Shown: positions 2,898 to 63,895, counted from the stretch's first letter. The stretch: 64,000 nucleotides of DNA from a virus (IMGVR_UViG_3300031994_000046:34658-98657), one strand, 5' to 3'. Numbers and translations: made by a program. The notes: generated by a model from the sequence alone, not told the origin.

Positions 2898-2898
2898 A

Positions 2899-3642
2899 TC
2901 ACTTAAGTTTTATTTTATAATCATTACAAGTAGTTGCCTTATATTTCTTAAGTGTATTATTAAATTCAATATAAGAAACTTTATAACCAATCAGTGACTT
3001 ACCAGAACTTCTACGATTTGCTAAAGCGTCATTATCAAAAGTAAAGAACTTAACAGATTTAGGAGTGCCAATTACTTGATTCCAATTTACTCTATTAATT
3101 GCTTTCTGAAGAACATTTATTTTATAAATATCTGTCTTAAACCACCAAATATTTTCAGCACCATAGATTGCACAGATAAGAGCAGTGTTCTTCTTTAATG
3201 CAATTGACCTACGAGCCTTTTCTGAAAGTGTAGAAACATTCTCCTCTTCCTTAGTGACATGATTATCTACCTTATGAATTCCGTATGCATTAATTCTACG
3301 ACATTCCTTCATAAACCAAAATCCATGAGCATTATATTTATGACCTGAAACTGGTCTGTGATTCTGTACAAAATGCTCAGGATTAAATGTATAATCAGCA
3401 ATATGAATCATCTCATGAAGAAGAGTTGAAATCTTAACCTCTTCTGGAGAATCAAAATAGTTAGAAATAGTAATGGACTTAGGATTAACCTTGTTGTTTG
3501 GATAGTCATATATGAAAGATGCATATCCCCATATTCTCTTATTATGATTAACTTTGAAACCAATCATTGGAAGTTCACCATTCCAATATTTGTTATTGAA
3601 CTCAATGTAATGTTCCTTAATCCAATTAACTGTAACTATCAT
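2899..3642 (-). CDS. SprT-like zinc metalloprotease
   Basis: LLHEMIH HExxH motif with downstream HG..F motif; N-terminal FN..YW.GELP typical of SprT. Confidence 0.85.
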   Translation of the reverse strand: MIVTVNWIKEHYIEFNNKYWNGELPMIGFKVNHNKRIWGYASFIYDYPNNKVNPKSITISNYFDSPEEVKISTLLHEMIHIADYTFNPEHFVQNHRPVSGHKYNAHGFWFMKECRRINAYGIHKVDNHVTKEEENVSTLSEKARRSIALKKNTALICAIYGAENIWWFKTDIYKINVLQKAINRVNWNQVIGTPKSVKFFTFDNDALANRRSSGKSLIGYKVSYIEFNNTLKKYKATTCNDYKIKLK

Positions 3643-3664
3643 ATATATTTTATTTTATATATAC

Positions 3665-3692
3665 AATATAGTTAAAAACTAAAAAAATTCAA
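3665..3692 (-). promoter_or_regulatory. TTGAAT-N16-TATATT promoter (recurring motif)
   Basis: Same motif upstream of many minus-strand genes (35822-35850, 41768-41796, 54620-54647, 55393-55421, 63734-63761). Confidence 0.65.
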
Positions 3693-3737
3693 ATATTATT
3701 TATTTTTTATGAAATATATTAGAAGCTTCATGTTTAT

Positions 3738-4211
3738 TTAAGATTTTACTAACCAGTCCGCTGCAGATGTAACAAGTGGTCCAAGACTTTTGAATCTTAC
3801 ATCATATCCACATGATTCTACCCACCCTTTAGCTGATTGAAATACTTCATTTGACTGAAATTTTGGATTAGGATTCAAATCAAGATCAATATATTTTGGT
3901 TTTGGACAACCATGTTCAACCAATTCATTGGCCGTATTGATAGATTCTTCTACTTCCTTAAGAAGTCTAACTTGACGTACTGTTTCTTTAGGAGTATTCC
4001 AACGCTTAAATACACAATGTCCACCATGACCTGGTGTGTACAATACTACAACAGTTGAATATGTAGTAACAGATCTTTTATTTTGAGAATCTGTACCTAC
4101 AATAATTTCGATAGGAATATCCTTATGTTCAGCACAGTAAGTCTTAACGTATTCAGAAATACTTGGCAATTTTTCTCCAGTAAATTTTTTAAAACTTATT
4201 GTTCCTATCAT
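3738..4211 (-). CDS. RNase H-like YkuK (DUF458) family protein
   Basis: VGTDSQ, RLLKEVEES, DLDLN and AAD motifs characteristic of the family. Confidence 0.85.
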   Translation of the reverse strand: MIGTISFKKFTGEKLPSISEYVKTYCAEHKDIPIEIIVGTDSQNKRSVTTYSTVVVLYTPGHGGHCVFKRWNTPKETVRQVRLLKEVEESINTANELVEHGCPKPKYIDLDLNPNPKFQSNEVFQSAKGWVESCGYDVRFKSLGPLVTSAADWLVKS

Positions 4212-4252
4212 ATTTGTTATGTTATATATTTGTTATGTTATATTTAAATATA

Positions 4253-4288
4253 AAAAAGAGACACTTTATTTAATTAAGGTGCCTCTTT
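4253..4288 (-). terminator. intrinsic terminator
   Basis: AAAGAGACACTTTA/TAAGGTGCCTCTTT hairpin with T-run on minus strand after the S1-like gene. Confidence 0.6.
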
Positions 4289-4312
4289 AAATAATATTGA
4301 TATATATATTGA

Positions 4313-5398
4313 TTAAGATAATTCAAACACTGGTCTAACGAAACATTTAAGAAGTTGTCCTTTCTTATTATATGCGAAAGGTTCTTTACCTTCCTGAATT
4401 TCAAATTCTGAAATCTTAACCTTAACATGATCACCAGGTTTGAAATCTAACAAATCAGAAGCATCAATAGGCATAAGACCAGTTATATACTTATCATCCA
4501 ATTCAATGAATATACCTGTCTTATTATTAGAATTGATAATACCTGTTACAGTTCCATCATAAGTTTCAGATTCATATGTAACATTATCATTAGATTTAGC
4601 AAGAAGCCAACGATTATAGATGTCATGAATATTATTCATACCGAGAATCTGGAGTACTTTCTTTCGAGATCCAACTAATGAATTCTCAATCAAACCTGTC
4701 TTAAAATCACGACGGAATTCTACAAACTTCTGCGGAATAATTACAACATCCTTGCCAATCCATTTATCGAAATCACGTTCAATATTCAATACAATATGTG
4801 AACCGGGAATAAATACGGAATGAGTGTAATTCTTACCAGTCAACTGACAGATTGGAGTAATATCAGTATGGCACAAATATCCACCCTTAACAAGAGAATC
4901 AATATGAACATTAATTCCTTGTTCATGTTGAATAGCTTTGTTAATTGTATTAGTCCAATACTTATAATATGCAGTGATTACTGACACAATATATTTATTG
5001 TCCTTATGTTCACGAACCTCAAACAATAGTTTATTTCCGTGAGAAAGCAAGAATGAATTGATTTCTGCTGCACAATCATTAAAATTCTCTTTTGATATAA
5101 TTTCATCCTTGACACCAGGAAGTTCAAATGTCATTCCGTTCTTATCAAAAGACTTAACATAACCTGAATAAATCTGTCCAAGTTCAATTGTTACAACAGT
5201 GTTAATGTTTTTGTTTTGCTTAGTTTCTTGTGAAACCTCTTCTCCGTAGAATATTGCAAATGACTTAGCTAATGGCATATTACCATAAGCTTTCTTCATA
5301 TACTTAATTCGCTCTTTATCATTTTTAAAACCAGCGAATACGTCACCATCAATGTCCTTTGCAGTAATTAAACGTTCTTTATTTTTATTATTTGCCAT
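4313..5398 (-). CDS. ribosomal protein S1-like (multi S1/OB domain) protein
   Basis: S1 motifs: GQIYSGYVKS, VKGGY...FIPGSHI, VGSRKKVL, GTVTGI..GIFIEL..GL..DFKPGDHVKVKI; probable start MANNK. Confidence 0.8.
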   Translation of the reverse strand: MANNKNKERLITAKDIDGDVFAGFKNDKERIKYMKKAYGNMPLAKSFAIFYGEEVSQETKQNKNINTVVTIELGQIYSGYVKSFDKNGMTFELPGVKDEIISKENFNDCAAEINSFLLSHGNKLLFEVREHKDNKYIVSVITAYYKYWTNTINKAIQHEQGINVHIDSLVKGGYLCHTDITPICQLTGKNYTHSVFIPGSHIVLNIERDFDKWIGKDVVIIPQKFVEFRRDFKTGLIENSLVGSRKKVLQILGMNNIHDIYNRWLLAKSNDNVTYESETYDGTVTGIINSNNKTGIFIELDDKYITGLMPIDASDLLDFKPGDHVKVKISEFEIQEGKEPFAYNKKGQLLKCFVRPVFELS

Positions 5399-41911: not shown

Positions 41912-43678
41912 ATGATATTTGGTAACTTAGAAGATGTATTGGAAAATGAACAGACTATAAATGAGGCTATTCAACAGAATTTCCAACAATCATACGGCAA
42001 TATGCAAAAGCCAACGAAATGGTCAAAGATACTTGTAAAGCTTTCACATTACGGAATGAATTATTCTGATGATGTGTATAAGAACATGGTTGCATATCCT
42101 GCAGATAAAGCATTACAGCCTAAAGATGATGTAGCTTTACAACAGGTATTAATGGGATCATCAGTAAATAACTGGAAGGTAAAACCTGAAGAAGACAAAT
42201 CATTCTCAGAAAAGACATTAGAGCAGAAACGTGATGTACTTCGTAAGATGGCTATGCAGCCTGAACTTGAAGACATTTTAGATATCATGGCTAATGAATC
42301 TATTGTTTATGATGATGATGAATCTTATATTTGTACACCATTCTTAGACACCGGTTTGATTCAAGACTTAAATGAAAAGTCTGCTGAAGAAATTCGTAAT
42401 GCAATGGATATAGCATTCTATAAAATATATCTTTTATTGGAATGGAAAAAATTTGCATGGGATGAATATAAACGTTATCTTATAGATGGTGTATTAGCAT
42501 ATGAAATAGTATATGATAATCTTGAGAATCCTAAAGCTATAACGGGTATTGTAGATATTGATCCTAATACATTAACAAAGAAGATTAAAGATGGTACTAC
42601 ATATTGGGTTCAGTTTGAAGGCAAGATTGGATTTGAACGTATATTACTAGATTCTCAAGTCATATATATCAAATATGAAGATTCTGGTGTATCAACACGT
42701 CAATCATATCTTGAACGTCTGATTCGTCCATTTAATATTTATCGTATTGTTGAACAGGCACAAGTTATTTGGACAGTTACTCAATCATCATTTAAGACAT
42801 TATTTACTATTCCAGTAGGATCACAAAATAGAACAAAAGGTGCTCAAACATTAGCATCTTCAATGAATAGATATAAAGAAGACATATCATTCAATACAGA
42901 AACTGGTGAACTTAAAGTAAATGGTAAAATGAATATGCCATTTAATAAAGAATATTGGTTCCCAGAAAATGAAAATGGTAGACCACAGCTTGAAACACTT
43001 GTTGATAATGGACCAATGCTTAATGATTCAGACCAGATAAGATATTTTGAATCTAAACTTTGGAAGATGTCAAAGATTCCTGCAAACCGTTTTGATAAGG
43101 AAGCTCAATCAACATGGTTTGGTAATGATCCTACTCAAGCATTACGTGATGAAATTGATTTTTCAAGATTCGTAACACGTTTAAGAAATACATTTGCTGA
43201 AATATTACTTAAGCCACTTCGTATTCAATTATCATTATCAGTTCCAGACATTAAGAACGATAAACGTATATTAGATTCAGTTACTCTTCGTTGGAATTCA
43301 TATAACTTATTCGAAGAAATGATGAATATTGAAATCATGACTAAAAGAGTAGAATTTATTGGAACTATGAAAGACAGCTTAGCAACAACTGATGCTGAAG
43401 GTAATGAAGAATCATTCTTCTCACTTAAGTTCTTAATTATGAAATATCTTAAGATGTCTGACGCTGACCTTGAATTGAATGAAAAGTATAAGATGGAAGA
43501 AAAACTTGCTAAAGGTAATGGTAATACCGAAGAGGAAGAAGAAACTGGAGAAACAGAAGAAACAGGAACAGAACCTGAAGGAGGAGAAGGTGGTGGAGCT
43601 GAAGAAGAAGGTTCAGACATAGATTCTGAAATGCTCGGTGACGTACAACCAGAATCTCCAGAAACAACACAAGCATAA
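41912..43678 (+). CDS. portal protein (T4 gp20-like)
   Basis: YLIDG, SYLERL, YWFP, D.IRYF..KL..SKIP, RDEIDFSRFV.RLR motifs. Confidence 0.93.
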   Translation: MIFGNLEDVLENEQTINEAIQQNFQQSYGNMQKPTKWSKILVKLSHYGMNYSDDVYKNMVAYPADKALQPKDDVALQQVLMGSSVNNWKVKPEEDKSFSEKTLEQKRDVLRKMAMQPELEDILDIMANESIVYDDDESYICTPFLDTGLIQDLNEKSAEEIRNAMDIAFYKIYLLLEWKKFAWDEYKRYLIDGVLAYEIVYDNLENPKAITGIVDIDPNTLTKKIKDGTTYWVQFEGKIGFERILLDSQVIYIKYEDSGVSTRQSYLERLIRPFNIYRIVEQAQVIWTVTQSSFKTLFTIPVGSQNRTKGAQTLASSMNRYKEDISFNTETGELKVNGKMNMPFNKEYWFPENENGRPQLETLVDNGPMLNDSDQIRYFESKLWKMSKIPANRFDKEAQSTWFGNDPTQALRDEIDFSRFVTRLRNTFAEILLKPLRIQLSLSVPDIKNDKRILDSVTLRWNSYNLFEEMMNIEIMTKRVEFIGTMKDSLATTDAEGNEESFFSLKFLIMKYLKMSDADLELNEKYKMEEKLAKGNGNTEEEEETGETEETGTEPEGGEGGGAEEEGSDIDSEMLGDVQPESPETTQA

Positions 43679-46688: not shown

Positions 46689-48602
46689 ATGGCAAACAAA
46701 GAATTTGAATACGAATATAATCCTATAAAGGAACAAATAAATGGAAAAGAGGCTGAAAAAGTAATATGGTCTACTGCAGTTATAAATAAAGCATTAGAAG
46801 GTATACAATCTGGTCAGCCATTAAAAGCTAGTCCATTCTTAAATAAAAATACTAAACTATTAAAACCTGAATTAGTTCGTAAATATACTCAAGAAGAAAT
46901 TGAAGATTATAAACGTTGTGCATTGGATCCTTTATATTTCGCAGAGAAATGTTTCTTGATGACACCAACAGGTTTACAAGCTTGTAAACTTCGTGATTAT
47001 CAAAAAGCATATATAAGACATTTACAGAATAATAGATTTAGTATCTTCCTTTCGTGTCGTCAGTCAGGTAAGTCAACAACAACTGCTATTTATTGTCTTT
47101 GGGTTATATTATTCAATTCAGATAAATCAGGTCTTATATTATCAAAATCTGGTCCTGCAGGATTAGACCTTATTAAAAAGATTAAGGATATGTATCTTTA
47201 TCTTCCTTATCACTTAAAGATAGGTACAATGAAATGGAATCAATCTGAAATTTCATTTGATAATAACTCTTCAATATCAACTGAATCATTCTCACCAACA
47301 GCAGGTCTTGGTAAAACAATTAACTTCCTTATTCTTGATGAGTTTGCTTGGTGTCCACCTAATGATGTTGAATTATTCTATAATAACATCATACCTACTG
47401 TTACTACAATTACAGATTCAAACGTATGTATAATGTCTACACAAAATGGATTTAACTTATTCTATAAACTTTGGAAAGGTGCTATTGAAAAGACTAATAT
47501 ATATGCACCATTTAAAGTAGACTGGTATCAGGTTCCTCAATATAACCCAGAAACAGGTCAATGGGAAAAACGTACTGATAAATGGAAAGAAGATATGATA
47601 GGTGTATTAGGATCTGTTGAAGCTTTCTATTATCAATATGGTACACAATTCTCAGCATCAGATAAATGTTTGGTTTCTCGTGAACGTATTGCTACATTAA
47701 GAGATGACGCAATATTGTATGAAGAACGTGATTTGGAATTAACTGAACTTTTTGGATTAGCATTGCAATATCCAAGATATTTAGTATGGGACCCAAATTT
47801 CAATTTAGAAGATATTAAGACATGTTTCTTCTTAATATTGATAGATCTTGCTGAAGGATTTGGTGGAGACTATACAGTATTCAATATATTCAAGATAATT
47901 GGTAAAGATCAATTTCAACATGTAGGATTATGGAGATCCAATGAAGTTGATCTTGAACATGCGGCATTAGAATTTTGGCTATTAGCAGGTCAATTATTCA
48001 ATGGAGAAAACTGTATGTGGTCATTAGAATGGAATACTTATGGAGCTTTATTCTATCGTCTATTGATGGATTATAATGAAGATGATTATGAAATTTCTAC
48101 AAAATGGAGATTCAATATTGTTACAGACGGTATTGAGTTAAGTAATTTTGTCCAATATAAGAAATCTGCAATGGATGAACAGATTATAGGACGTACAGGT
48201 TCAACATCAAGATTCATACCAGGAATAAAGTTTACCTCAGGAAATAAAGGTACAGCATGCTCATTACTAAAGACATTATTTGAAAAAGGCCAAGTTGTAA
48301 CAAGAGATATAGTTACATTAGGAGAATTAGAAAACTTCGAAGATAAGAATGGTAATGGTACATATAAAGCTTCTTATGGACATGATGATATTATTATGAC
48401 ATTTGTTCAGATTCCTATGGTGATGCAGACTGGAAAATATTCATCATTCTTGGAAGATATTGAAGAAGCTCGTATATCTGGAATTATAAACAATAAATGG
48501 AATACCAATCAACAGCAAAGCATTGAAGATACTCCATTTGGTATGTTTACACAATTAGGCGAAGGTTTCAATCAATTTGGTATTGAAATGCCTATGTCTT
48601 AA
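46689..48602 (+). CDS. terL: terminase large subunit (T4 gp17-like)
   Basis: LRDYQ, CRQSGKS Walker A, LILDEFA Walker B, DLAEG.GGDY, HDD nuclease motif. Confidence 0.95.
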   Translation: MANKEFEYEYNPIKEQINGKEAEKVIWSTAVINKALEGIQSGQPLKASPFLNKNTKLLKPELVRKYTQEEIEDYKRCALDPLYFAEKCFLMTPTGLQACKLRDYQKAYIRHLQNNRFSIFLSCRQSGKSTTTAIYCLWVILFNSDKSGLILSKSGPAGLDLIKKIKDMYLYLPYHLKIGTMKWNQSEISFDNNSSISTESFSPTAGLGKTINFLILDEFAWCPPNDVELFYNNIIPTVTTITDSNVCIMSTQNGFNLFYKLWKGAIEKTNIYAPFKVDWYQVPQYNPETGQWEKRTDKWKEDMIGVLGSVEAFYYQYGTQFSASDKCLVSRERIATLRDDAILYEERDLELTELFGLALQYPRYLVWDPNFNLEDIKTCFFLILIDLAEGFGGDYTVFNIFKIIGKDQFQHVGLWRSNEVDLEHAALEFWLLAGQLFNGENCMWSLEWNTYGALFYRLLMDYNEDDYEISTKWRFNIVTDGIELSNFVQYKKSAMDEQIIGRTGSTSRFIPGIKFTSGNKGTACSLLKTLFEKGQVVTRDIVTLGELENFEDKNGNGTYKASYGHDDIIMTFVQIPMVMQTGKYSSFLEDIEEARISGIINNKWNTNQQQSIEDTPFGMFTQLGEGFNQFGIEMPMS

Positions 48603-54647: not shown

Positions 54648-54675
54648 AAAAATGGAGGGTTTATTTACCCTCCAT
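54648..54675 (-). terminator. intrinsic terminator
   Basis: ATGGAGGGT/ACCCTCCAT hairpin + T-run at end of Pth2-like gene. Confidence 0.75.
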
Positions 54676-55011
54676 ATTTAATAGTTTTTCCCTTTTAAGT
54701 TTTTGTTTTATACTACATGGAAAATCGTTTTCATATATTGCAATTGCTGTCATTTTATTGTTTAAATCTGGTTCTATGAAATATGTCCATTTGTAATGAT
54801 TAGGATCAAATCTAGCAAGTCTTTCATACCATTCGTTTATGTCAACTGATAAATAAATAAGGTAATCATTTTTCCAATCCCAGTCAGGATCACCATTTTT
54901 CAGTATCTACCAATTTTCAAGTAACCACTCAGCAACAGCATGACCACCTTGAACTGCAGCATATATAGGATCTAATGTCTTATCTGTTAAAATATATAAT
55001 TTATTTTTCAT
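54661..55011 (-). CDS. Pth2-like peptidyl-tRNA hydrolase with in-frame TAG at codon 35
   Basis: MKNKLYILTDKTLDPIYAAVQGGHAVAEWLLENW*ILKNG...FIEPDLNNKMTAIAI...LLNMEGK (116 codons); TAG at 54907-54909; absent from ORF track. Confidence 0.85.
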
Positions 55012-55424: not shown

Positions 55425-55877
55425 TTATTTATTTTTTAATTTAACTTTATTATCAATAATCTCATATTTTCCTTCAGCAAAAGTATTATATACTTCAATG
55501 ACTTTTCTTTTAAAATTTGGAATAGCTTCATATTTCATACATCCTTCACCACCACCATAAGAATACGCATCTTTTCCATACCAAAGCATTTTCCAGCATT
55601 TATATATAATTTCATTATCTAACCAAGTATGTAAAGATAAATTATCAACTAATTCATCATTTTCAAAATCACACCCAATACGATGTTTGAACATATAGTA
55701 AGCTACATATACGTGGTGATGATGTCCATATTCAGCTTGTTTAATATATTGTTTGAATGCTAAATATTGTTCTTTAGTTGTAGCATTTATTGAAAAATCT
55801 TCTTTACTGTAAGTCTGGCAAAAATCATCACTTGAATTAACTAAATCTATTCTAAAATTATTATCTTCTGTATTCAT
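55425..55877 (-). CDS. hypothetical protein
   Basis: 150 aa; HHHHVYVAYY motif. Confidence 0.75.
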   Translation of the reverse strand: MNTEDNNFRIDLVNSSDDFCQTYSKEDFSINATTKEQYLAFKQYIKQAEYGHHHHVYVAYYMFKHRIGCDFENDELVDNLSLHTWLDNEIIYKCWKMLWYGKDAYSYGGGEGCMKYEAIPNFKRKVIEVYNTFAEGKYEIIDNKVKLKNK

Positions 55878-55888
55878 ATTATTATCAT

Positions 55889-56335
55889 TTATATATTTGT
55901 CATTATATAATCTAAATTTTGTTCAGAATATTCAATATTATATTCTTGACATTTTTTCTTGTAGAAATTTTTGGTACTTTCAATTATTACTTCACCATGA
56001 GTTTTACCTTTATTATCTCCATATTCTATTAGTTTATCCCAGTTTTTGATAAACCAATCTTCTGAATCATTATCTTTGTAATAATCTTTGAAAGACTGCA
56101 CATCTCTATTAGCCCAGTATTTTAAACCATGTCTAATCCAACGATAATAATATAAAATATTTGTGATTTTATACGCCCTAATTTTAATTTCATCTACTAT
56201 ATCTTGTAAACTCTTTTCTTTAGGACGATTTGTAAGTTTACGAGTTTTCTTTTGCTCTATTTGTTCATTTGCGAGTTGAGCTATCTCAGATTTCATAGCA
56301 TTAACTAATGCATTTCTAAATTCTTTGTTTTCCAT
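55889..56335 (-). CDS. hypothetical protein
   Basis: 148 aa, first gene after leader/attenuator. Confidence 0.75.
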   Translation of the reverse strand: MENKEFRNALVNAMKSEIAQLANEQIEQKKTRKLTNRPKEKSLQDIVDEIKIRAYKITNILYYYRWIRHGLKYWANRDVQSFKDYYKDNDSEDWFIKNWDKLIEYGDNKGKTHGEVIIESTKNFYKKKCQEYNIEYSEQNLDYIMTNI

Positions 56336-56349
56336 AATACTAAAACATA

Positions 56350-56488
56350 TTTATTTATAAAAATTTCTGTGTTCAAGAAAAACGTTCTGTTCAAATATTG
56401 TTGAACACATAAAAAATATTGAACAGATTTTTATAAACAAATCTATTTACGGAAAACCTAAATCAAAAATCTACCAAAACTGTTTCAT
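56350..56488 (-). promoter_or_regulatory. amber-containing leader peptide (56447-56488, MKQFW*IFDLGFP) plus alternative hairpins
   Basis: ATG AAA CAG TTT TGG TAG ATT TTT GAT TTA GGT TTT CCG TAA after A-rich initiation region; mutually exclusive stems downstream. Confidence 0.65.
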
Positions 56489-56602
56489 AATTTTAATTTA
56501 ATTTAATTTGTTAGTTATATAAAATGGTTTATCCTCTAACCAAAAAGGAGTTGTATTGTGGAACAACTTTAAAACATCCATGTTCTTTTTACAGAAACAT
56601 CG

Positions 56603-56673
56603 TGCCCCATGTAGGACTCAAACCCACCTCAGCTGGTTTAGAAGCAGCGGCACAATCTCTATACCAATGGGAC
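56603..56673 (-). tRNA. amber suppressor tRNA (anticodon CUA)
   Basis: 7-bp acceptor, D and T arms fold; anticodon arm GCTGC-TTCTAAA-CCAGC; the Arg-TCT register cannot pair. Confidence 0.8.
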
Positions 56674-56698
56674 AAATATATGTTGGTACAATTATATG

Positions 56699-56770
56699 CA
56701 GGCGGTGAAGGATTCGAACCCTCATGAACGGTTTTGGAGACCGCAATACTAACCATTGTATGAACCACCT
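56699..56770 (-). tRNA. tRNA-Trp(CCA)
   Basis: GCGGT-CTCCAAA-ACCGT. Confidence 0.9.
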
Positions 56771-56774
56771 AAAT

Positions 56775-57007
56775 TAGATGAGTAAATTTGCGAGCTACGG
56801 ACTGAAGAAACCACGGCTAGAAAACGCGGATTGCATTATCTCTTTGAGATTTTACTCTTCTGTTGCGTTGCGCCTTATGAGCTCTCACGATACTCAACTC
56901 CTTTCACTGGGCGAGGACTATTTCTTAGATCCAACCAACATAATAAGAAGAAGTCGACATTTGCTTATTACTTACCCCAGTTCTACTCAGAGGCCTGTAC
57001 TCATCTA
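56775..57007 (-). ncRNA. uncharacterised structured RNA
   Basis: GC-elevated spacer closed by 10 bp terminal inverted repeat TAGATGAGTA/TACTCATCTA. Confidence 0.5.
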
Positions 57008-57101
57008 TTAAAATATTATATTCTTCAAGAACCTCTTTCAGTCTGCTTGGTTGACTTTCACAACTCGTGTTAGATAGTGACTTAAATATTTTATATTTGT
57101 A

Positions 57102-57262
57102 AAAACTTCTTCTGGTCTAGACCATTGGATTACTATTCCAAATCGGTTCCTTGATTCTTCTCCGATAACCAAATATTCGTGCGCCTTCGAATATCTCTAA
57201 AACGGTAACCAGTCCATTTAGAATACATGCGCATATTCAACTAAATGAAACTCAGAAGTTTT
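57102..57262 (-). ncRNA. uncharacterised structured RNA
   Basis: 9 bp terminal stem, internal hairpins with complementary loops. Confidence 0.5.
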
Positions 57263-57265
57263 ATG

Positions 57266-57337
57266 TTGGGATGGGCAGAGTCGGACTGCCATTACCAGGA
57301 CCAAAATCTGGTGTGATAACCGTTATACTACATCCCA
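57266..57337 (-). tRNA. tRNA-Gln(UUG)
   Basis: CCAGA-TTTTGGT-CCTGG, T1-A72. Confidence 0.9.
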
Positions 57338-57372
57338 ATTTAAATGTTTCAATAGTTCAAAGTTTAATTTAA

Positions 57373-57477
57373 AAACCAATCTGTAACAATCTCATAAAGA
57401 TTAACCAAAACAAAAAATCAAACAAACAATGAGAAATAAAAATATGAAGTATCTCTACGATACAACAAGATTGGTTT
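57373..57477 (-). ncRNA. free-standing Y-RNA-like stem module
   Basis: AAACCAATCT-TGTTGTA-TCGTAGAGAT-ACTTC...U-rich...ATCTTTATGA-GATTGTTAC-AGATTGGTTT. Confidence 0.65.
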
Positions 57478-57480
57478 ATG

Positions 57481-57552
57481 TGGAGCCACAGGTAATCGAA
57501 ACCTGATCCCAAGCGTGCAAAGCTTGTATAATAGCCGTTATACGATGACCCC
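57481..57552 (-). tRNA. tRNA-Ala(UGC)
   Basis: G3-U70; CAAGC-TTTGCAC-GCTTG. Confidence 0.9.
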
Positions 57553-57680
57553 AAAACTCACCATTTTTAAGTTGTCACCGAAAATGATGGAAAAACTTCC
57601 TCACTTACGATAGGAAACTAGTTTGAATATATCAATTCAGGGACTAATTACGTTACGTTGAGGCGCGACCTCTTTTGATG

Positions 57681-57752
57681 AGGCGGTACTGAGAATCGAA
57701 CTCAGATCGTCGGGTTACAAAGCCGAAATAATAACCATTATACTAAACCGCC
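57681..57752 (-). tRNA. tRNA-Thr(UGU)
   Basis: TCGGC-TTTGTAA-CCCGA (C31:C39 mismatch), U73. Confidence 0.8.
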
Positions 57753-57762
57753 ATTTCTTTAA

Positions 57763-57860
57763 AATTTCATTGTAACAAATGAAGAAAGTATTTAGTCTTA
57801 AATCTTATTAATCTTATCATTATAATATTGAAGTAACTCTCCTCTTCAACAAATGAAATT
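57763..57860 (-). ncRNA. free-standing Y-RNA-like stem module
   Basis: ATTTCATT-TGTTGAA-GAGGAGAGT-TACTTC...ACTTTCTTC-ATTTGTTAC-AATGAAAT. Confidence 0.65.
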
Positions 57861-57862
57861 AG

Positions 57863-57946
57863 TTGCGGGGGTTGGAATCGAACCAACACAAGCATTTTCT
57901 GTCTCAAGGTTATGAGCCTTGCATCTTACCATTAGACTACCCCACG
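57863..57946 (-). tRNA. initiator-like tRNA-Met(CAU) with long variable region
   Basis: C1:A72 mismatch; CAAGG-CTCATAA-CCTTG; about 17 nt variable region. Confidence 0.8.
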
Positions 57947-57954
57947 ATATTAAT

Positions 57955-58031
57955 TGGTGGGCCCACCAGGGCTTGAACCTGGGACCTACTGATTATGAGT
58001 CAGGTGCTCTGACCAACTGAGCTATAGGCCC
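57955..58031 (-). tRNA. tRNA-Ile2/Met(CAU)
   Basis: GGGCC acceptor, CTCATAA loop, encoded CCA. Confidence 0.9.
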
Positions 58032-58035
58032 AAAA

Positions 58036-58222
58036 ATAATATTGTGCAATAACAACTATGCCTCGCCCTAATTGTGGTTGTACTTCCCACGATAGCTCGC
58101 ATGCGCTGAATAACTAATTTCCAAGAATTTAATTTTTATTCTATCAGAATCATCATTATTGACTCTTGCATAAAAAGATTTATTCCTACCTTAGGAGCAT
58201 CTCCTCTTTTTAACAATATTAT
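58036..58222 (-). ncRNA. uncharacterised structured RNA
   Basis: 10 bp terminal inverted repeat ATAATATTGT/ACAATATTAT. Confidence 0.45.
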
Positions 58223-58223
58223 G

Positions 58224-58297
58224 CGGTGCGTACGGGACTCGGACCCGTGACCCCATGCGTGACAGGCATGTATTCTAACCAACTGAACTAACGCACC
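58224..58297 (-). tRNA. tRNA-Asp(GUC)
   Basis: CATGC-CTGTCAC-GCATG, G73. Confidence 0.92.
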
Positions 58298-58354
58298 AAT
58301 TATATATAATTATAATCAAATATAGTTAATTATAATTAAATATTTCAAAAAAAG

Positions 58355-58485
58355 TTGCCACTGTGGGACTCGAACCCACGACCACGAGCTTAAAAGGCTG
58401 AAGTAACTCTCATCTTCAACAATATTTCTATGTAACTCTCGACAAAAATATAATTACGTGCTCTGTCCAACTGAGCTAAATGGCA
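58355..58485 (-). tRNA. tRNA-Lys(UUU) with 57 nt insert in anticodon stem
   Basis: Removing 58400-58456 restores CGAGC-CTTTTAA-GCTCG. Confidence 0.8.
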
Positions 58486-58488
58486 AAG

Positions 58489-58737
58489 TAGCGGCCATGG
58501 GAGTCGAACCCATTATTTGCAGGTGCTTAACCCCTGCCGTGATCATTTCCTAAACAAGTAACTTAGTTCCTCACTTTATCCCGGGCTTGCTTGACTTTTA
58601 ACCTTGTTTATTTTTTGATGCTGTTAAGTACCCCTTTCAAGATTGCTTATCCGTCGATAAGTAGCGCCCTGATTCTAAGTCTTAACACAGTCCGCCGACA
58701 CATCAAATTGGAAATATATCCGTTTCACTCGAACACT
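58489..58737 (-). ncRNA. tRNA-like RNA with about 180 nt structured D-loop expansion
   Basis: T arm ATGGG-TTCGACT-CCCAT; acceptor AGTGTTC/GGCCGCT; D stem GTGA/TCAC; GCAGG-GGTTAAGCA-CCTGC arm. Confidence 0.55.
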
Positions 58738-58753
58738 GAAGTTTGTTATATTG

Positions 58754-58839
58754 CGTGCCCTGTAGGATTCGAACCTACGATTGGGATTTCTCCACGGCAG
58801 ATTAACAGTCTGCTGCCTTAACCACTCGGCCAAAGACAC
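58754..58839 (-). tRNA. tRNA with GUU (Asn) anticodon on class II, Tyr-like body
   Basis: GCAGA-CTGTTAA-TCTGC, long variable arm, G73. Confidence 0.85.
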
Positions 58840-58844
58840 ATTTG

Positions 58845-58974
58845 CGGCGACGGTTGGAGTCGAACCAACTTTCCTTAATTTGACTGATTAATGCTTTGAA
58901 GTAACTCTAATCTACAACATCATTTCTGAGTAACAGCGAATAAAGTTGTTTATCTACCGTTTAGCTACGTCGCC
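58845..58974 (-). tRNA. tRNA-Asp(GUC)-like with about 56 nt insert in D-loop
   Basis: TTAAT-CAGTCAA-ATTAA (A33), G73; insert about 58898-58953. Confidence 0.7.
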
Positions 58975-58983
58975 ATTAAATTG

Positions 58984-59054
58984 CGGAACACCAAGGAATT
59001 GAACCTCGAACACTCCCAGAACATGGGAGCAGTTTACCGTTAGCCTAATGCTCC
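58984..59054 (-). tRNA. atypical tRNA, GUU (Asn)-like loop
   Basis: CTCCC-ATGTTCT-GGGAG; non-canonical A32/C37/U38; G73. Confidence 0.6.
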
Positions 59055-59148
59055 ATAGAGGTTGTTAATTGAAAGACTGATTTACAGGACAAATACGTTT
59101 CCAAACTTTCCTATCCCCTAGTACCCCATAACTCGGTTCCCTTATAAG

Positions 59149-59289
59149 TGGCGGGCAGGGTTGGATTCGAACCAACGATACATTGTTTAACAGACAATTA
59201 CATTAACCTTTTGAAGTAACTCACGATTCTACACTACCTTACGGAGAACAACGAACGAAGTTTTAAATCTTTTTCTATGTTACCTACCC
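59149..59289 (-). tRNA. tRNA-Asn(GUU) with about 56 nt insert in D-loop
   Basis: ATTGT-CTGTTAA-ACAAT, G73, CCA; insert about 59213-59268. Confidence 0.8.
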
Positions 59290-59296
59290 AAATTTG

Positions 59297-59369
59297 CGCG
59301 CCCTGAAGGAGTCGAACCCTCATCTACTGGGTTTGGAGTCCAGTGCCTTAACCATTAGACCAAAGACGC
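59297..59369 (-). tRNA. tRNA-Trp(CCA)
   Basis: CTCCAAA loop, G73. Confidence 0.9.
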
Positions 59370-59576
59370 ATTAACCGGTATTTTGAGACCGGTAACTCAC
59401 AGATCCTTGCTTTTTCTGGGGATCTGCTCGCGTATACCAGACTGCAACTTTTAATCAACTGACATCTGCTCCTCCGCGATACAAGACCTACTCATCAGTT
59501 TTGACACATATAGGATGCCATCCTATTTCTCGTCATATTGTGCCCGATACTAGTCGGTGTGTTACTCCAACTGGGG

Positions 59577-59649
59577 TAGGGAGACCGGGATTTGAACCCA
59601 GACTATCGAGTGTATAAGACTCCCGTGCTGACCGTTACACTATCTCCCC
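59577..59649 (-). tRNA. tRNA-Ile(UAU)
   Basis: GAGT-CTTATAC-ACTC. Confidence 0.85.
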
Positions 59650-59650
59650 A

Positions 59651-59836
59651 TATATTCTACCCATCTGCGCCTTCCAACGTATGACTGCCTAAACGCATCC
59701 TACGGCCTCGGAAATTATAGCGAATTTGCAACTTCCCATAACTCTGTACCACCATCGTGCCGGATTTTCCTAATGTTCGTCATACCTACTAATTTACTAA
59801 TTAGTACTTCTCTGCACTCCGACCTGATAGAATATA
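59651..59836 (-). ncRNA. uncharacterised structured RNA
   Basis: GC-elevated, 9 bp terminal inverted repeat TATATTCTA/TAGAATATA. Confidence 0.45.
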
Positions 59837-59838
59837 AT

Positions 59839-59913
59839 TGGTTGCGGAAGTGAGATTTGAACTCCACCACTAAGGTTATGAGCCTTGTATGCGACCTACA
59901 CACTGCTTCCGCG
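59839..59913 (-). tRNA. initiator-like tRNA-Met(CAU)
   Basis: C1:A72, CTCATAA loop, CCA. Confidence 0.8.
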
Positions 59914-60040
59914 ATATTTAAATTTAATTTAATAAGAACCTTCCGTTGTCAACCAAGGCTTACCTAAAACTATTCTTCTAAGCTATTTCTCTACCACCTC
60001 GTCTTGGATTCGAACCAAGATTATCGACTTAAATTAAATG

Positions 60041-60116
60041 TGCTCTCACAGGGATTCGAACCCTGACCTCACAGATTAAGAGTCTGGTACGCTGAACCGT
60101 TAAACGCCATGAGAGC
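60041..60116 (-). tRNA. tRNA-Lys(CUU)
   Basis: CAGA-CTCTTAA-TCTG. Confidence 0.9.
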
Positions 60117-60738
60117 AATTAATAAATTCTTTTATATTATTAATTACTTTATATTTATCATCATTATTCATTTTTTTATATTCAGACCAACGTATTCTAA
60201 TTCCTTCCCAACCTTTTTGCTTTAAATATTCATTACGTTCTTTATCATGTTGAATCATATAATCTGAATAATGTTGTTCACCATCAATTTCTACATATTT
60301 CATTAAATCTTCATTATAAAAATCTAATTCATATCTATCAATCTGTTTATGATATTTTAATGGAACATTTTCTTTAATGAATAATTCTTCAAAATATTTT
60401 TCTGGATAACTTTGTTTTGATGAATGATTTAATTTAAAAGGAATTTTATCTGGATTATTATCTAAATATTTTTTTCTTGATTTAGAAATTTTTTGTTTTG
60501 ATTCTTCTGAATGATGTTTACCAATCCAAGATATTTTTTTCTTAGTTTCATCAGACATAATTATTTCTTTTCCTTCCTCTTTTGCTTTTATATATTGATT
60601 TGTTGGTTTTCTAGTTTTATTATAATCTCCCATAAATATTGATGTAATACGATTTTTATTATATTTACATCTTATTTCATGTTGAACCAAAGAATTCTTA
60701 TTTTTACATTCTTTATTACAATATTTACAATTAAACAT
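60100..60738 (-). CDS. free-standing homing-type endonuclease (Zn finger + NUMOD3 + DUF559/Vsr-like)
   Basis: CKYC..H..C; GKHHSEESKQKIS; LDF..VEIDGEQH..D..R..L...GW; true start ATG 60738. Confidence 0.85.
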   Translation of the reverse strand: MFNCKYCNKECKNKNSLVQHEIRCKYNKNRITSIFMGDYNKTRKPTNQYIKAKEEGKEIIMSDETKKKISWIGKHHSEESKQKISKSRKKYLDNNPDKIPFKLNHSSKQSYPEKYFEELFIKENVPLKYHKQIDRYELDFYNEDLMKYVEIDGEQHYSDYMIQHDKERNEYLKQKGWEGIRIRWSEYKKMNNDDKYKVINNIKEFINCSHGV

Positions 60739-60756
60739 ATATTTAAAATATTTTTG

Positions 60757-60827
60757 TGACCTCACTGGGAATCGGACCCAGGTCACATGATTAAAAGTCA
60801 TGGGCTTTACCACTAAGCTATGGGGTC
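60757..60827 (-). tRNA. tRNA-Lys(UUU)
   Basis: CATGA-CTTTTAA-TCATG. Confidence 0.92.
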
Positions 60828-60833
60828 ATTATT

Positions 60834-60968
60834 GTGCCTTCGAAGGAATCGAACCTCCATACTTACTCCTATTAATTATTACTTATCCGCGGTTGTAATA
60901 ATCTTCGGTTAGTAAGACCGCCTTCACAGGGCGGTACGGTTACCAATATACCGTAATAAACCAGCATT
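60834..60968 (-). ncRNA. His(GUG)-anticodon tRNA-like RNA with about 55 nt variable arm
   Basis: CCGCC-CTGTGAA-GGCGG; 6 bp D stem; canonical T arm; C73; weak acceptor. Confidence 0.6.
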
Positions 60969-60983
60969 GTTAAGAATTGTTTG

Positions 60984-61079
60984 TGCCGCCGGTAGGATTC
61001 GAACCTACTTACTGCTAGAGGCCAATACCGAAATTTGATAGAGCAGAATGGTTTTACGGACCATCTCGGTTACGTCGGC
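60984..61079 (-). ncRNA. D-armless Tyr(GUA)-anticodon tRNA-like RNA
   Basis: GCCGACG/CGGCGGC acceptor; ATGGT-CCGTAAA-ACCAT; large variable arm; canonical T arm. Confidence 0.65.
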
Positions 61080-61129
61080 TTGCTATAATTACTATCATCT
61101 TCGTTATAGCAATAATAATAATCCTTCAT
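61070..61129 (-). CDS. Tyr-rich leader mini-ORF
   Basis: MKDYYYCYNEDDSNYSKPT*; stop lies within the Tyr-like RNA. Confidence 0.55.
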   Translation of the reverse strand: MKDYYYCYNEDDSNYSKPT

Positions 61130-61159
61130 AACTCTTAACTTTAAATTTATTAATAATTG

Positions 61160-61229
61160 CGTGATAAACCGGAATTGAACCCTGTTTCTGCCCCACTACA
61201 GAGCTGTCCTAACCTATAGACGATTATCC
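61160..61229 (-). pseudogene. degenerate tRNA-like sequence
   Basis: D and T arm motifs present; anticodon arm and acceptor imperfect. Confidence 0.45.
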
Positions 61230-61323
61230 TTATCGCTATATCTGCCAATATAACGTTTATATTATTTATTGAATTTTCTTACAACTGGCAGGAAATAAGA
61301 TTTTTACAACAAATAACATAAAG

Positions 61324-61413
61324 TGGGTCGGGAGGGACTCGAACCCCCAATGTTTACCCGGAGGGACTAGATTTACAGTCTAGCACAACACCACCAATCG
61401 TTGCTGCCGGCCC
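61324..61413 (-). tRNA. tRNA-Tyr(GUA)
   Basis: CTAGA-CTGTAAA-TCTAG, long variable arm, extended D stem. Confidence 0.88.
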
Positions 61414-61566
61414 AAAAGGTAGAAACTCCCAGTGTTTCTACTAACTGCTAAACGTATTTATACTTAGGATTAGTTTAGATTCAACCAAATCTTTACCATG
61501 ATGGTAAAAATCCCATCTATAAAGGGGATGGTTATATTCCCAATCGCTTTTGAGTTTTACCCTTTT
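61414..61566 (-). ncRNA. uncharacterised structured RNA
   Basis: long imperfect terminal stem AAAAGGTAGAAACTC/GAGTTTTACCCTTTT. Confidence 0.45.
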
Positions 61567-61653
61567 CTATTAAATCTATTTTCACAAACAAATTTAATAA
61601 TCTCTATCTTCCATTTCTTCCCTTAATTCATTACAAAATGTTATAATGAATCG

Positions 61654-61726
61654 CGGTCCCTACGGGATTCGAACCCGTACCGTACGGATCGACAATCCGA
61701 CATTGTTACCGTTCAACCAAGAGACC
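61654..61726 (-). tRNA. tRNA-Asp(GUC)
   Basis: CGGA-TTGTCGA-TCCG, G73. Confidence 0.88.
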
Positions 61727-61863
61727 AAATATGGTTATTATCCAGATACCAAAAAACTGGGAACAAATTTCTCGATTATCCATTCCAACGTCATTGTCTT
61801 TACACTTGATACACTTGGACCAAGAGGAAAAATGATAACCCTTATAAGCATGGCATGCAAGAG

Positions 61864-61936
61864 TGGGGCGGCAGAGAATCGAACTCTGGTTGGTAGGATG
61901 TAAGCCTACTGTCCTGGACCACTAAACGACCTCCCC
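61864..61936 (-). tRNA. tRNA-Val(UAC)
   Basis: GTAGG-CTTACAT-CCTAC. Confidence 0.88.
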
Positions 61937-61944
61937 AATATATG

Positions 61945-62018
61945 TACTCCGGCAGGGATTCGAACCCTGGACCCGATGCTTAAGAGGCAACTACTCTAAC
62001 CAACTGAGCTAACGGAGC
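61945..62018 (-). tRNA. tRNA-Lys(CUU)
   Basis: CTCTTAA loop. Confidence 0.88.
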
Positions 62019-62031
62019 ATTATATTATTTG

Positions 62032-62107
62032 TGCTCCCACAGGGACTCGAACCCTGACCTCACAGATTAAAAGTCTGGAACGCTATACCAATTAACGCCA
62101 TGAGAGC
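62032..62107 (-). tRNA. tRNA-Lys(UUU)
   Basis: near-identical body to 60041-60116 but CTTTTAA loop. Confidence 0.9.
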
Positions 62108-62114
62108 AAATTAG

Positions 62115-62188
62115 TACCCCCTCAGGGATTCGAACCCTGGATCCTCGGCTTAAAAGGCCGCAGCTTTAACCAACTCAGCTAAGAGGGC
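62115..62188 (-). tRNA. tRNA-Lys(UUU)
   Basis: CGGC-CTTTTAA-GCCG. Confidence 0.9.
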
Positions 62189-62271
62189 ATACACAATAAA
62201 TTGTATTAAACTTAATAATAATTTGCGTTTAATTTTGATTTAACGTGCATGCTTCTAATTGGTTAAACTGC

Positions 62272-62331
62272 TTAATACCAACTTCTCTCAGGAAACATAC
62301 ACAACTAACGTTTTCGTTTAAACTGTTTCAT
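62272..62331 (-). promoter_or_regulatory. second amber-containing leader mini-ORF (MKQFKRKR*LCMFPERSWY)
   Basis: Same ATGAAACAGTTT start as the 56488 leader; TAG at 62305-62307; A-rich initiation region. Confidence 0.55.
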
Positions 62332-62373
62332 ATGTTTTAAATTTTATATTTATAGATTATTAATTTCTATTTG

Positions 62374-62445
62374 CGGTCCATGAGGGAGTCGAACCCTCAT
62401 CTTGTGATCGACAGTCACACATTCTAACCGTTATACTAATGGACC
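62374..62445 (-). tRNA. tRNA-Asp(GUC)
   Basis: TGTGA-CTGTCGA-TCACA. Confidence 0.92.
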
Positions 62446-62480
62446 AAATATCTGTCACCTAAGTGATCCAAATTTATATG

Positions 62481-62566
62481 TACCGGGAATGGGGGTCGAA
62501 CCCACACGCCCCTTACGGGGCAACAGATTTTAAGTCTGTCTTGTCTACCGATTCCAACATCCCGGC
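62481..62566 (-). tRNA. tRNA-Leu(UAA)
   Basis: ACAGA-CTTAAAA-TCTGT, long variable arm. Confidence 0.92.
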
Positions 62567-62619
62567 ATCCTTATATTATATATTATAATATAGTAACTTA
62601 ATAAATAAATTACAATATG

Positions 62620-62693
62620 CGGGGACAGAGGGATTCGAACCCACAACCATCGGCTTAACAGGCCGCCGCTCTAACCATTATAGCTATATCCCC
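62620..62693 (-). tRNA. tRNA-Asn(GUU)
   Basis: CGGC-CTGTTAA-GCCG. Confidence 0.9.
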
Positions 62694-62700
62694 ATAATTG

Positions 62701-62772
62701 CGCTCCCGGTAGGGGTCGAACCTACGACCAATAGATTAACAGTCTACTGCTCTACCACTGAGCTACAGGAGC
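62701..62772 (-). tRNA. tRNA-Asn(GUU)
   Basis: GTAGA-CTGTTAA-TCTAT. Confidence 0.92.
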
Positions 62773-62985
62773 AAAATTAAATTTGGAGGACCGTTCTGTG
62801 CTGACCAGAATATTCAGTATTCGTAAATGGATTTACATTTCAACGACATACGAAGCATGGAGTCTTTCACCATTTGCCGAGCCGACCTCTTAACGACACC
62901 TATGGGAAATAGGAAACGAATCGTAAATATAACAGTTTTATTTCAACATCCCAAGTTTTTTATTTTCCATTATATTAACCATTTG

Positions 62986-63058
62986 TGGAGCTGAAGAGAA
63001 TCGAACTCTCCCACAAACCTTGCAAAGGTCCATCGCCTGCCTTGGAACATGCAACCCC
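62986..63058 (-). tRNA. tRNA-Ala(UGC), atypical D arm
   Basis: G3-U70; GGACC-TTTGCAA-GGTTT. Confidence 0.8.
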
Positions 63059-63200
63059 AAATAGCTTCAACGAAAATAGTATTCCACATCGGCTAATACT
63101 TATTTCAATCTGCTCCTGTGGTATTCTCTCAGCCGAAATTATGAATGTTATTCCAACTTATCAAGTAGTTTTTCAACTTGCCTCACCGGCATCCATATTG

Positions 63201-63274
63201 AGCTCCGTACCGGACTCGAACCGATAACATCCGCATTACAAGTGCGGCGCTCTACCAATTAAAGCTAACAGAGC
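63201..63274 (-). tRNA. tRNA-Thr(UGU)
   Basis: CCGCA-CTTGTAA-TGCGG. Confidence 0.92.
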
Positions 63275-63657
63275 AAATAAAAATGGTAGTGCTTTGGACA
63301 AGCAGTCTAATCTCTCGAACTTAATCTACAAAAGATAGAGCCTGATATATTTCAATCATATTTTTCTTTGGCAACTACCACATATTTCTTAATGATATGG
63401 AAATTCTGTTATAAAGGCAATTTTTAATCTCCCACTATCAGAGAACCTTTATATATATTTACTGAACTATTTCGCTGAGGTGCTTGGCATCTCATTGAAA
63501 GGGGTTTTCCACCACTCCTCTTCCAAATCAGTTTTGTTTAATTGTAGGCGGGCTTCTCACCACTTAATTGCGTCTCAACCATTACTGGAGTGTCCTTCTT
63601 GTTCTCTTAATGAGTGTGCTAGACGACTACAATTATTTTTATATTTATTGTACCAAC

Positions 63658-63669
63658 ATGTCAAAGAAC
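63658..63669 (-). promoter_or_regulatory. boxA-like antitermination site
   Basis: GTTCTTTGACAT about 65 nt downstream of promoter 63734-63761 at the head of the tRNA transcript. Confidence 0.5.
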
Positions 63670-63733
63670 TCAGATTCAAAAACTCTAAATAATATCTTTT
63701 CAAATATAATTAGAATTTGAATATTATATTAAT

Positions 63734-63761
63734 AATATAGTTCTTTAAAAAATAATTTCAA
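63734..63761 (-). promoter_or_regulatory. TTGAAA-N16-TATATT promoter driving tRNA cluster
   Basis: matches recurring motif. Confidence 0.6.
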
Positions 63762-63815
63762 ATTTCTAAGAAAAAATTTATAAAGAATTTCAACTATATA
63801 AATTAACATAATTTG

Positions 63816-63895
63816 TACCTCTACTGGGATTCGAACCCAGACCCAATTAAGGAGGGATTTTAAGTCCCCTGCGTAGACCGTTCCGCCATAGAGGC
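63816..63895 (-). tRNA. tRNA-Leu(UAA)
   Basis: GGGGA-CTTAAAA-TCCCT. Confidence 0.9.

Follow-up and report, generated by a model that had tools for sequence, protein, structure and literature searches.

A conserved amber-containing leader beside a phage amber-suppressor tRNA and a predicted RNA lock at the start of the following operon

The locus and its phage setting

The locus was analysed within a stretch of viral DNA of 64,000 nucleotides (the window). On the minus strand, an array of tRNA genes (56603-63895) was followed by a leader mini-ORF (56447-56488), by four short pairing arms and by an operon whose first gene (gene 1) occupied 55889-56335. The DNA was AT-rich (~27% GC) and belonged to a phage; the genes for the portal protein and the large terminase (TerL) lay at 41912-43678 and 46689-48602, respectively. 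TerL was a distant member of the T4 superfamily, which matched 2582 T4-superfamily records; the best match was 31% to Tenacibaculum phage PTm1, and uncultured phages of 460-640 kb were also matched. By this comparison, the phage was T4-like. The standard genetic code otherwise applied, as reading TAG as sense lifted the ORF coverage of the window merely from 87.5% to 88.6%. Beyond the leader, the window held only one other well-supported in-frame TAG, which lay in the same operon. The relatives were IMG/VR viral contigs of 100-435 kb, and the sequencing runs holding the stretch came from sheep and bovine gut samples. No match was returned when the region was searched by blastn in 50,697 phage records.

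The last member of the tRNA array (56603-56673) carried the anticodon CUA and was identified as an amber-suppressor tRNA with an Rfam tRNA score of 33.7 bits (gathering score 29). ARAGORN missed it in the window and called its homologues in the relatives as tRNAs with a cta anticodon. It had no close paralogue among the 26 tRNAs of the window. A tRNA-Trp (CCA; 56698-56770; ARAGORN, Rfam tRNA 53.1 bits) was its conserved neighbour just upstream, and the same order was found in relatives, where the CUA tRNA usually followed tRNA-Trp. The leader started ~115 nt past the suppressor tRNA. A CUA-anticodon tRNA was present upstream of the leader in 57 of the 59 sequences with enough upstream DNA, and its T arm ended 49-211 nt ahead of the leader ATG in the 52 cases that a simple pattern detected. 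The spacing between tRNA and leader varied among relatives; some had tRNA-like fragments there, and one (L011) had an extra ORF of ~45 codons between the two on the oriented strand. Directly after the suppressor tRNA in the window, ATGTTTCT..AGAACAT formed a hairpin followed by GGATGTTTT (56572-56600, minus strand). This hairpin was not conserved in relatives; RNA processing or weak termination may occur at it.

Several other observations were made within the arrays. Candidate tmRNA-like genes were called by ARAGORN inside the tRNA arrays of two relatives (L023:1020-1400; L024:3467-3794). A second mini-ORF of the window (62331-62275, minus strand) had ATGAAACAGTTT in common with the leader and an in-frame TAG (MKQFKRKR, then stop); it was absent from every related locus retrieved and is hence unlikely to be a conserved element. 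Four rumen RNA libraries had contigs that accumulated at 56862-56932, within the spacer 56775-57007, with a summed depth of 900-4900 that far exceeded that of the adjoining tRNAs and genes, contig depth being a poor measure. A stable non-coding RNA may lie here, between tRNA-Trp and tRNA-Gln. Rumen metatranscriptome contigs also covered the leader and arms as well as the start of the gene. Ends, strand and level are not readable from contigs and DNA carry-over is possible, so this coverage was used as a weak hint only.

Gene 1 encoded a helical protein of 148 aa. Its predicted model was of high quality (pLDDT 90.9) and had no fold match in the PDB, and a protein-atlas search gave no usable match. 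The PHROG and Pfam scans returned nothing for genes 1-3 and 5 of the operon. The fourth gene (54661-55011, minus strand, 116 codons) carried the second in-frame TAG of the operon at codon 35 (54909-54907), after TGG. This TAG was retained by 10 of the 11 relatives, at identities as low as 50%; one relative (L033) had lost it and still had the leader and tRNA. The family of this gene (~100-aa proteins) comprised 320 representatives. The PTH2 domain PF01981 was matched by 8 of 40 family members (best E 2e-6); the window protein itself had no Pfam match, and the family profile gave weak hits to peptidyl-tRNA hydrolase in the PDB (E 0.036 and 0.45). The family is described as distantly Pth2-like. 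The TAG of the operon gene lay in a variable loop, which is as expected for a gate and not for a specific residue.

The leader mini-ORF and its invariant amber codon

The leader (56488-56447) reads ATG AAA CAG TTT TGG TAG ATT TTT GAT TTA GGT TTT CCG TAA, with the TAG at 56473-56471, variable codons 8-10 at 56467-56459 and the TAA at 56449-56447. It thus has 13 sense positions and a stop, in the conserved form M K Q F W (UAG) I x x x G F P stop. The original prediction had proposed such a leader from the window, and its conservation was borne out by the relatives. The mini-ORF ATG..TGG-TAG-ATT-N9-GGN-TTT-CCN-TAA was found in ~60 distinct rumen-phage sequences, once per contig, and the pattern searches yielded 45 distinct leader sequences with the consensus ATG A(A/G/C)(A/G) CA(A/G) (TTT/TTC/CAT/AAG/AAA) TGG TAG ATT N9 GG(T/A/G) TTT CC(G/A/T) TAA. 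A leader upstream of homologues of the downstream gene, as the prediction implied, was carried by all nine loci that were reached via the downstream protein, independently of the leader. In one relative, the leader was identical over 42/42 nt, while the downstream protein was 49% identical and the flanks were different. A conserved A/U-rich stretch (TAACAAATTAA..AAAATT; 56489-56516 in alignments A1 and A2) preceded the leader ATG and is probably its translation initiation region, without a Shine-Dalgarno sequence. The real genes of the window likewise had A/U-rich upstream regions without Shine-Dalgarno sequences. A Bacteroidetes-type -33/-7 promoter was sought by eye in the leader and dropped, as the spacing does not fit.

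The TAG was invariant, and every true match kept it even with the TAG position unconstrained in the search. Codons 1-4 were free in the largest search. The searches behind most of the sequences fixed positions 1 and 2 of codons 5-7 and 11-14; hence, the invariance at codons 5-7 and 11-14 arises partly by construction, and only ~14 contigs were found independently of the fixed bases. Among the free codons, Gln-3 varied synonymously only (CAG/CAA), and Lys-2 changed to AAG, AGA and ACA. Codons 8-10 took 22 forms that were always 9 nt long. These variants contained no in-frame stop in 66 codons, whereas stops occurred in 38 of 176 codons in the other frames (7/88 and 31/88). The open frame past the TAG is the strongest sign that ribosomes read beyond it. 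Moreover, the leader ended in G-F-P-stop in 45 of 45 variants. The conserved ATG, the stop-free frame and the synonymous-only Gln-3 are those of a short upstream ORF, and on this comparison the leader looks translated. The prediction that the TAG at codon 6 matters gained support from its invariance, from the frame kept open beyond it and from the position of the leader after an amber-suppressor tRNA.

Predicted structures joining the leader to the start of gene 1

The end of the leader was complementary to the start of the following gene over 11 bp. Leader nt 32-42 (GUUUUCCGUAA, strand L, 56447-56457), which span the end of Gly-11, Phe-12, Pro-13 and the stop, paired with UUAUGGAAAAC (strand T, 56327-56337), the start codon region of gene 1. 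This helix (L:T) was present in the minimum free energy fold of the window and in the RNAalifold consensus of 53 sequences. The 181-nt stretch folded at -40.6 kcal/mol, whereas 200 shuffles gave -25.5 +/- 3.1 (z -4.9), and no shuffle among the 200 folded as well. In the covariance-model alignment A5 (62 rows), 94.8% of the L:T cells were paired. Both strands were nearly invariant, so that L:T had no compensatory changes of its own. One pair was GU in 46 rows and AU in 13, and G-U pairs fit an RNA of the minus strand only. Taken alone, the L:T complementarity ranked 3rd of 88 start regions of the window. In the predicted structure, L is covered by a ribosome on the leader and T lies at the initiation region; hence, the helix is placed to bury the start of gene 1 and is called the lock below.

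Further support came from the adjoining stem P0, in which the nucleotides from the leader stop to arm 1 (56428-56446; the spacer) paired with 56367-56347. P0 covaried across 61 sequences; matched spacer and post-arm pairs averaged -9.4 kcal/mol, whereas mismatched ones averaged -5.1, and the matched partner had a median rank of 2 of 61. Given this covariation, L:T forms the foot of a longer closed stem. The genes that followed the leader in different phages belonged to at least five protein families, and nearly all of them started with ATGGAAA(A/C). The homologue of gene 2 of the window started with ATGAATACA in the window and with ATGGAAA.. where it was the first gene after the leader. Only 2 of 88 window ORFs started with ATGGAAAA. 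The codon choice of the leader also fits pairing. All 45 leaders had TTT as the Phe codon, which has 64.5% usage in window genes, and GGT was used in 39 of 45, against 51%. The Pro codon was CCG or CCA in 43 of 45, whereas CCT accounts for 45% of the Pro codons in window genes. Pairing gives no explanation for the strong preference of CCG over CCA; CCG was used in 32 of 45 leaders and makes up 0.7% of the Pro codons in window genes.

Four arms lay between the two strands of P0, on the minus strand where the original prediction had placed them. Arm 1 (TCTGTTCAATATT, 56415-56427, core TCTGTTCAA at 56427-56419) paired with arm 3 (AATATTTGAACAGA, 56386-56399, core TTGAACAGA at 56394-56386), which was followed by ACGTTTTTCTT. 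Arm 2 (TGTGTTCAA, 56401-56409) paired with arm 4 (TTGAACACA, 56368-56376), and TTTATAAAAAT and ATTTTTATAAA flanked the arms in the window. The MAFFT alignments mis-registered arm 3 in some families, and the covariance-model alignment was therefore used instead. Compensatory changes were found at 8 of 9 pairs of helix 1:3 (94.3% of cells paired) and at 5 of 9 pairs of helix 2:4 (93.4%), the latter being outside the model used for aligning, so that its support is independent of the fitting. The two helices together had a covariation score of 0.225, whereas shuffles gave 0.106 +/- 0.005 (none of 500 as high) and slid partners gave 0.01-0.04. G-U pairs occurred in the helices, and arm sequences could differ wholly between families.

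Helices 1:3 and 2:4 were interleaved, each with covariation, as in an H-type pseudoknot. The loop lengths (L1 5-10, L2 2-7, L3 6-11 nt) allow a pseudoknot, and the two helices may equally be alternatives, the folding having excluded pseudoknots. RNAfold preferred the nested alternative 1:4 + 2:3 in the window. As a general fold it was rejected, since it needs all arms to share one core, which is impossible in the L007, L024 and L078 types. Arm 1 began 18-25 nt past the leader stop and thus outside the footprint of a terminating ribosome. In an Rfam scan of 55800-57400 (E up to 10), the significant matches were all tRNAs, and none was a cis-regulatory RNA (T-box, riboswitch or leader). Small AT-rich palindromic inserts, e.g. 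..TTTGAAAATT..ATTTTCAAT and ACAATTATAACAATTATAATTGT, resembled miniature mobile hairpins. They were found in one relative at L105:10892-11059, after arm 4 in L096/L060, upstream of the leader in L001, and before the ATG in L003, L081 and L110. The insert points differed, and the leader, arms and start pairing were intact in these relatives.

Proposed control by stop-codon readthrough and its alternatives

The effect of a ribosome on the lock was explored in ensemble folds of 60 relatives in which ribosome footprints were masked. The median probability of L:T was 0.88 both for free RNA and for RNA with a ribosome holding UAG in the A site. It was 0 when UAA occupied the A site, and with the ribosome there, the unpaired share of the start region increased from 0.25 to 0.60. 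That the lock disappears at UAA is built into the mask. What is telling is that, in this model, the UAG-bound footprint ends before the lock, and the fixed 13-nt length between the TAG and strand L fits such a footprint. The proposal that the outcome is selected by whether the ribosome stands at codon 6 or 14 was upheld insofar as a structure that persists in these folds with the ribosome at codon 6 is absent with the ribosome at codon 14. The accompanying idea of folds exchanged by the ribosome was not supported, as none of the four arms and nothing in the interleaved apex re-paired as the ribosome moved in these constrained folds.

Pairing of the last four codons of the leader with the next AUG region points to translational and not transcriptional control. 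A translational lock opened by stop-codon readthrough is the most likely mechanism, and we rate it at slightly better than even. The UAG-reading tRNA ends the array, and the same RNA carries the leader with UAG at codon 6 and the Pro-UAA end, while P0 and the interleaved apex would hold strands L and T together. In the off state, release factor RF1 would free the ribosome at UAG. Such a ribosome would reach only to about leader nt 27-31, the lock would stay closed and the AUG would remain buried. In the on state, the suppressor tRNA would read UAG, and the ribosome would run to Pro-UAA and sit on the 5' strand of the lock. It would perhaps linger there, as a Pro-stop context terminates slowly. 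The ribosome on L would thereby free the AUG of gene 1 for another ribosome. The operon also holds the Pth2-like gene, which needs UAG readthrough; hence, its product would be made from long transcripts only when suppression works. On such transcripts, gene 1 is probably translated only when UAG is read through.

The main rival is a purely temporal control of the T4 type, in which the structure silences gene 1 on transcripts reading through from the tRNA array and the mini-ORF has no part in the opening. Late transcripts would begin at TATAAATA, lack the 5' strand and hence be translated. This corresponds to the T4 genes e, soc, 49 and I-TevI, where the start region is buried on the long transcripts made early, and transcription late in infection starts within the structure (PMC3014915). 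The documented T4 paradigm, the T4-like TerL and the burial of the AUG in a conserved helix all speak for this possibility. Furthermore, TATAAATA, which resembles the T4-type late promoter, lay at 56359-56352 (minus strand) within the 3' strand of P0 (56347-56367), inside the structure and 24 nt before the gene 1 ATG. Of the 40 copies of TATAAATA in the window, 9 preceded a gene start on the same strand by up to 60 nt, where ~1 is expected by position. Eight of the nine were 14-27 nt before starts (18901, 41889 and 49668 on the plus strand; 56359, 55388, 53881, 33144 and 31420 on the minus strand), including those of the portal gene and gene 1. This spacing points to late promoters of the T4 type and, by extension, to a gp55-like sigma factor in the phage. 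With TATAAATA only 24 nt before its ATG, gene 1 may be expressed without the leader at all.

Several results are left unexplained by temporal control without a role for the leader, namely the invariant ATG and TAG, the stop-free frame past the TAG, the synonymous-only changes at Gln-3 and the strict linkage to a CUA tRNA. Moreover, of 61 relatives, only 21 had exact TATAAATA at the element, 8 had NATAAATA and 32 had neither, whereas the leader and lock were kept in nearly all relatives, including those without the late-promoter motif. The locus shares with the T4 cases a T4-like phage, an AUG predicted to be sequestered on long transcripts and, in this window, TATAAATA between the 5' strand and the start (PMC3014915). 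It differs from them in that the 5' strand is the end of a conserved amber-containing ORF beside a suppressor tRNA, and in that half of the relatives are without the exact late-promoter motif. Temporal control alone is accordingly considered unlikely. In this window the lock may act on read-through transcripts only, and the late promoter inside the structure would probably bypass it late in infection.

The ORF before UAG has five codons, which puts it in the size class of toxic minigenes, and the leader could be a minigene device in which MKQFW-UAG sheds peptidyl-tRNA(Trp) at a slow UAG, like lambda bar, and which is tied to the phage tRNA-Trp and the Pth2-like hydrolase and not to the start of gene 1. 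The adjacency of tRNA-Trp to the suppressor tRNA, the Pth2-like gene in the operon and the invariant TGG-TAG agree with this reading, whereas it explains neither the open frame past the TAG and the conserved G-F-P-stop nor why the end of the ORF, and not the UAG, forms the lock. As the explanation of the element it is very unlikely; it is compatible with the main explanation and not exclusive of it.

Transcription attenuation, the output favoured by the original prediction, is more doubtful still. Helix 1:3 and the U-run would terminate transcription, and the amber region, or TAGATTT after the stop, would pair with arm 1 as an antiterminator chosen by the ribosome. In the window, helix 1:3 was followed by ACGUUUUUCUU, and in the main family UUUU came 3-4 nt past arm 3. 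TAGATTTTT (56473-56465) was also complementary to AAAAATCTG in the window. However, a sigma-70 promoter and terminator scan, otherwise uninformative, found 0 terminators; the stems were AU-rich, the 1:3 loop was 20-25 nt long, and the U-run was not conserved, being absent in the L007, L024 and L004 types. These features leave the terminator-like hairpin, and with it transcription attenuation, without support. Pairing of the amber codon with the terminator arm did not hold up either. The UAGAUU/AAUCUG pairing was confined to the main family, where arm 1 reads AATCTG; it was lost with other arm 1 sequences, and codons 8-10 did not covary with arm 1. The invariant UGGUAGAUU pairing with arm 1 was rejected as a coupling on the same grounds. 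The conserved P0 and L:T need transcripts that reach the gene, and the RNA-library contigs, a weak hint, spanned the arms into the gene.

A DNA-level element, with the TGTTCAA/TTGAACA arms as operator half-sites or a cruciform before the gene 1 promoter, can practically be set aside: the main family does have four arms that share one core in two direct and two inverted copies just upstream of TATAAATA, but several families have two unrelated arm pairs, e.g. CTTACATAAA/TTTATGTAAG with TATGCUC/GAGCAUA, which fit base-pairing and not one protein, G-U pairs occur in the helices, and the structure reaches into two coding regions. The feature is real, strongly conserved and formed at the RNA level. 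The original prediction is thus partly supported. Its principle, the position of a ribosome that senses stop-codon readthrough, is retained in the readthrough-opened lock, and transcription termination as the output is not.

The proposed lock resembles ermC/ErmCL, secM-secA and mifM-yidC2, where a ribosome at the end of a short leader melts a helix that buries the next initiation region. The G-F-P-stop of the leader is reminiscent of ..G-P in SecM and of the Pro-stop in TnaC, and the Pro-stop ending and the conserved W..G-F-P are possible cues for nascent-peptide stalling. In contrast to these systems, which respond to a drug, secretion activity or an amino acid, the input here would be readthrough of an in-frame UAG. 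Unlike in the ermC/secM type, the AUG itself is buried and not the Shine-Dalgarno sequence, and the helix spans ~110 nt, within which lie a covarying stem and the interleaved helices. The autoregulation of prfB (RF2) employs an in-frame UGA and a +1 frameshift within the gene and senses the release factor. The leader shares with prfB an early in-frame stop as a sensor of termination efficiency, whereas readthrough would take place here in a separate leader and would sense a suppressor tRNA. RAPP/RGPP-type arrest peptides (ApdA, ApdP, ApcA, SecM) carry an R-A-P-P/G motif at the stall site (PMC7897499), which was absent from all 45 leader variants.

The closest engineered counterpart is an unnatural-amino-acid switch in which a TAG was put into the tna/trp leader peptide (PMC6412442). 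In both cases, downstream expression would need a CUA tRNA to carry leader translation past UAG. The engineered switch is synthetic and acts via Rho-dependent or intrinsic termination, whereas the element described here is natural, phage-encoded and apparently translational. A survey of recoding in gut phages proposed that suppressor tRNAs time late genes with in-frame stops (Borges et al., bioRxiv 10.1101/2021.08.26.457843). The 'code change modules' of that survey have in common with the present locus a phage suppressor tRNA that would time the expression of genes with in-frame stops. Their recoding is genome-wide in structural and lysis genes, whereas the phage studied here has the standard code, two targeted TAGs and a dedicated RNA switch, and the word 'leader' had 0 occurrences in that study. 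No published description of a natural amber-in-leader switch was found.

Many standard-code phages carry suppressor tRNAs without a known target, and the element would supply a concrete one. A tentative wider reading, which is possible though not the one we would bet on, is that such 'orphan' amber-suppressor tRNAs of standard-code T4-like phages are signals. The phage would gauge UAG readthrough via the leader, as a checkpoint that releases a translation-quality operon. If this reading is true, the input of a natural circuit is the state of the genetic code, and the invariant UGG-UAG-AUU and the rare CCG are tuned readthrough and pausing signals. The module is compact, comprising ~160 nt and one tRNA, and can be moved into reporters, and its W-UAG-AUU context, CCG-UAA ending and interleaved helices pose specific questions for work on ribosomes and RNA structure. 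The element would be a natural counterpart of the engineered amber-in-leader switch and would directly and mechanistically support a role of stop-codon readthrough in timing phage gene expression.
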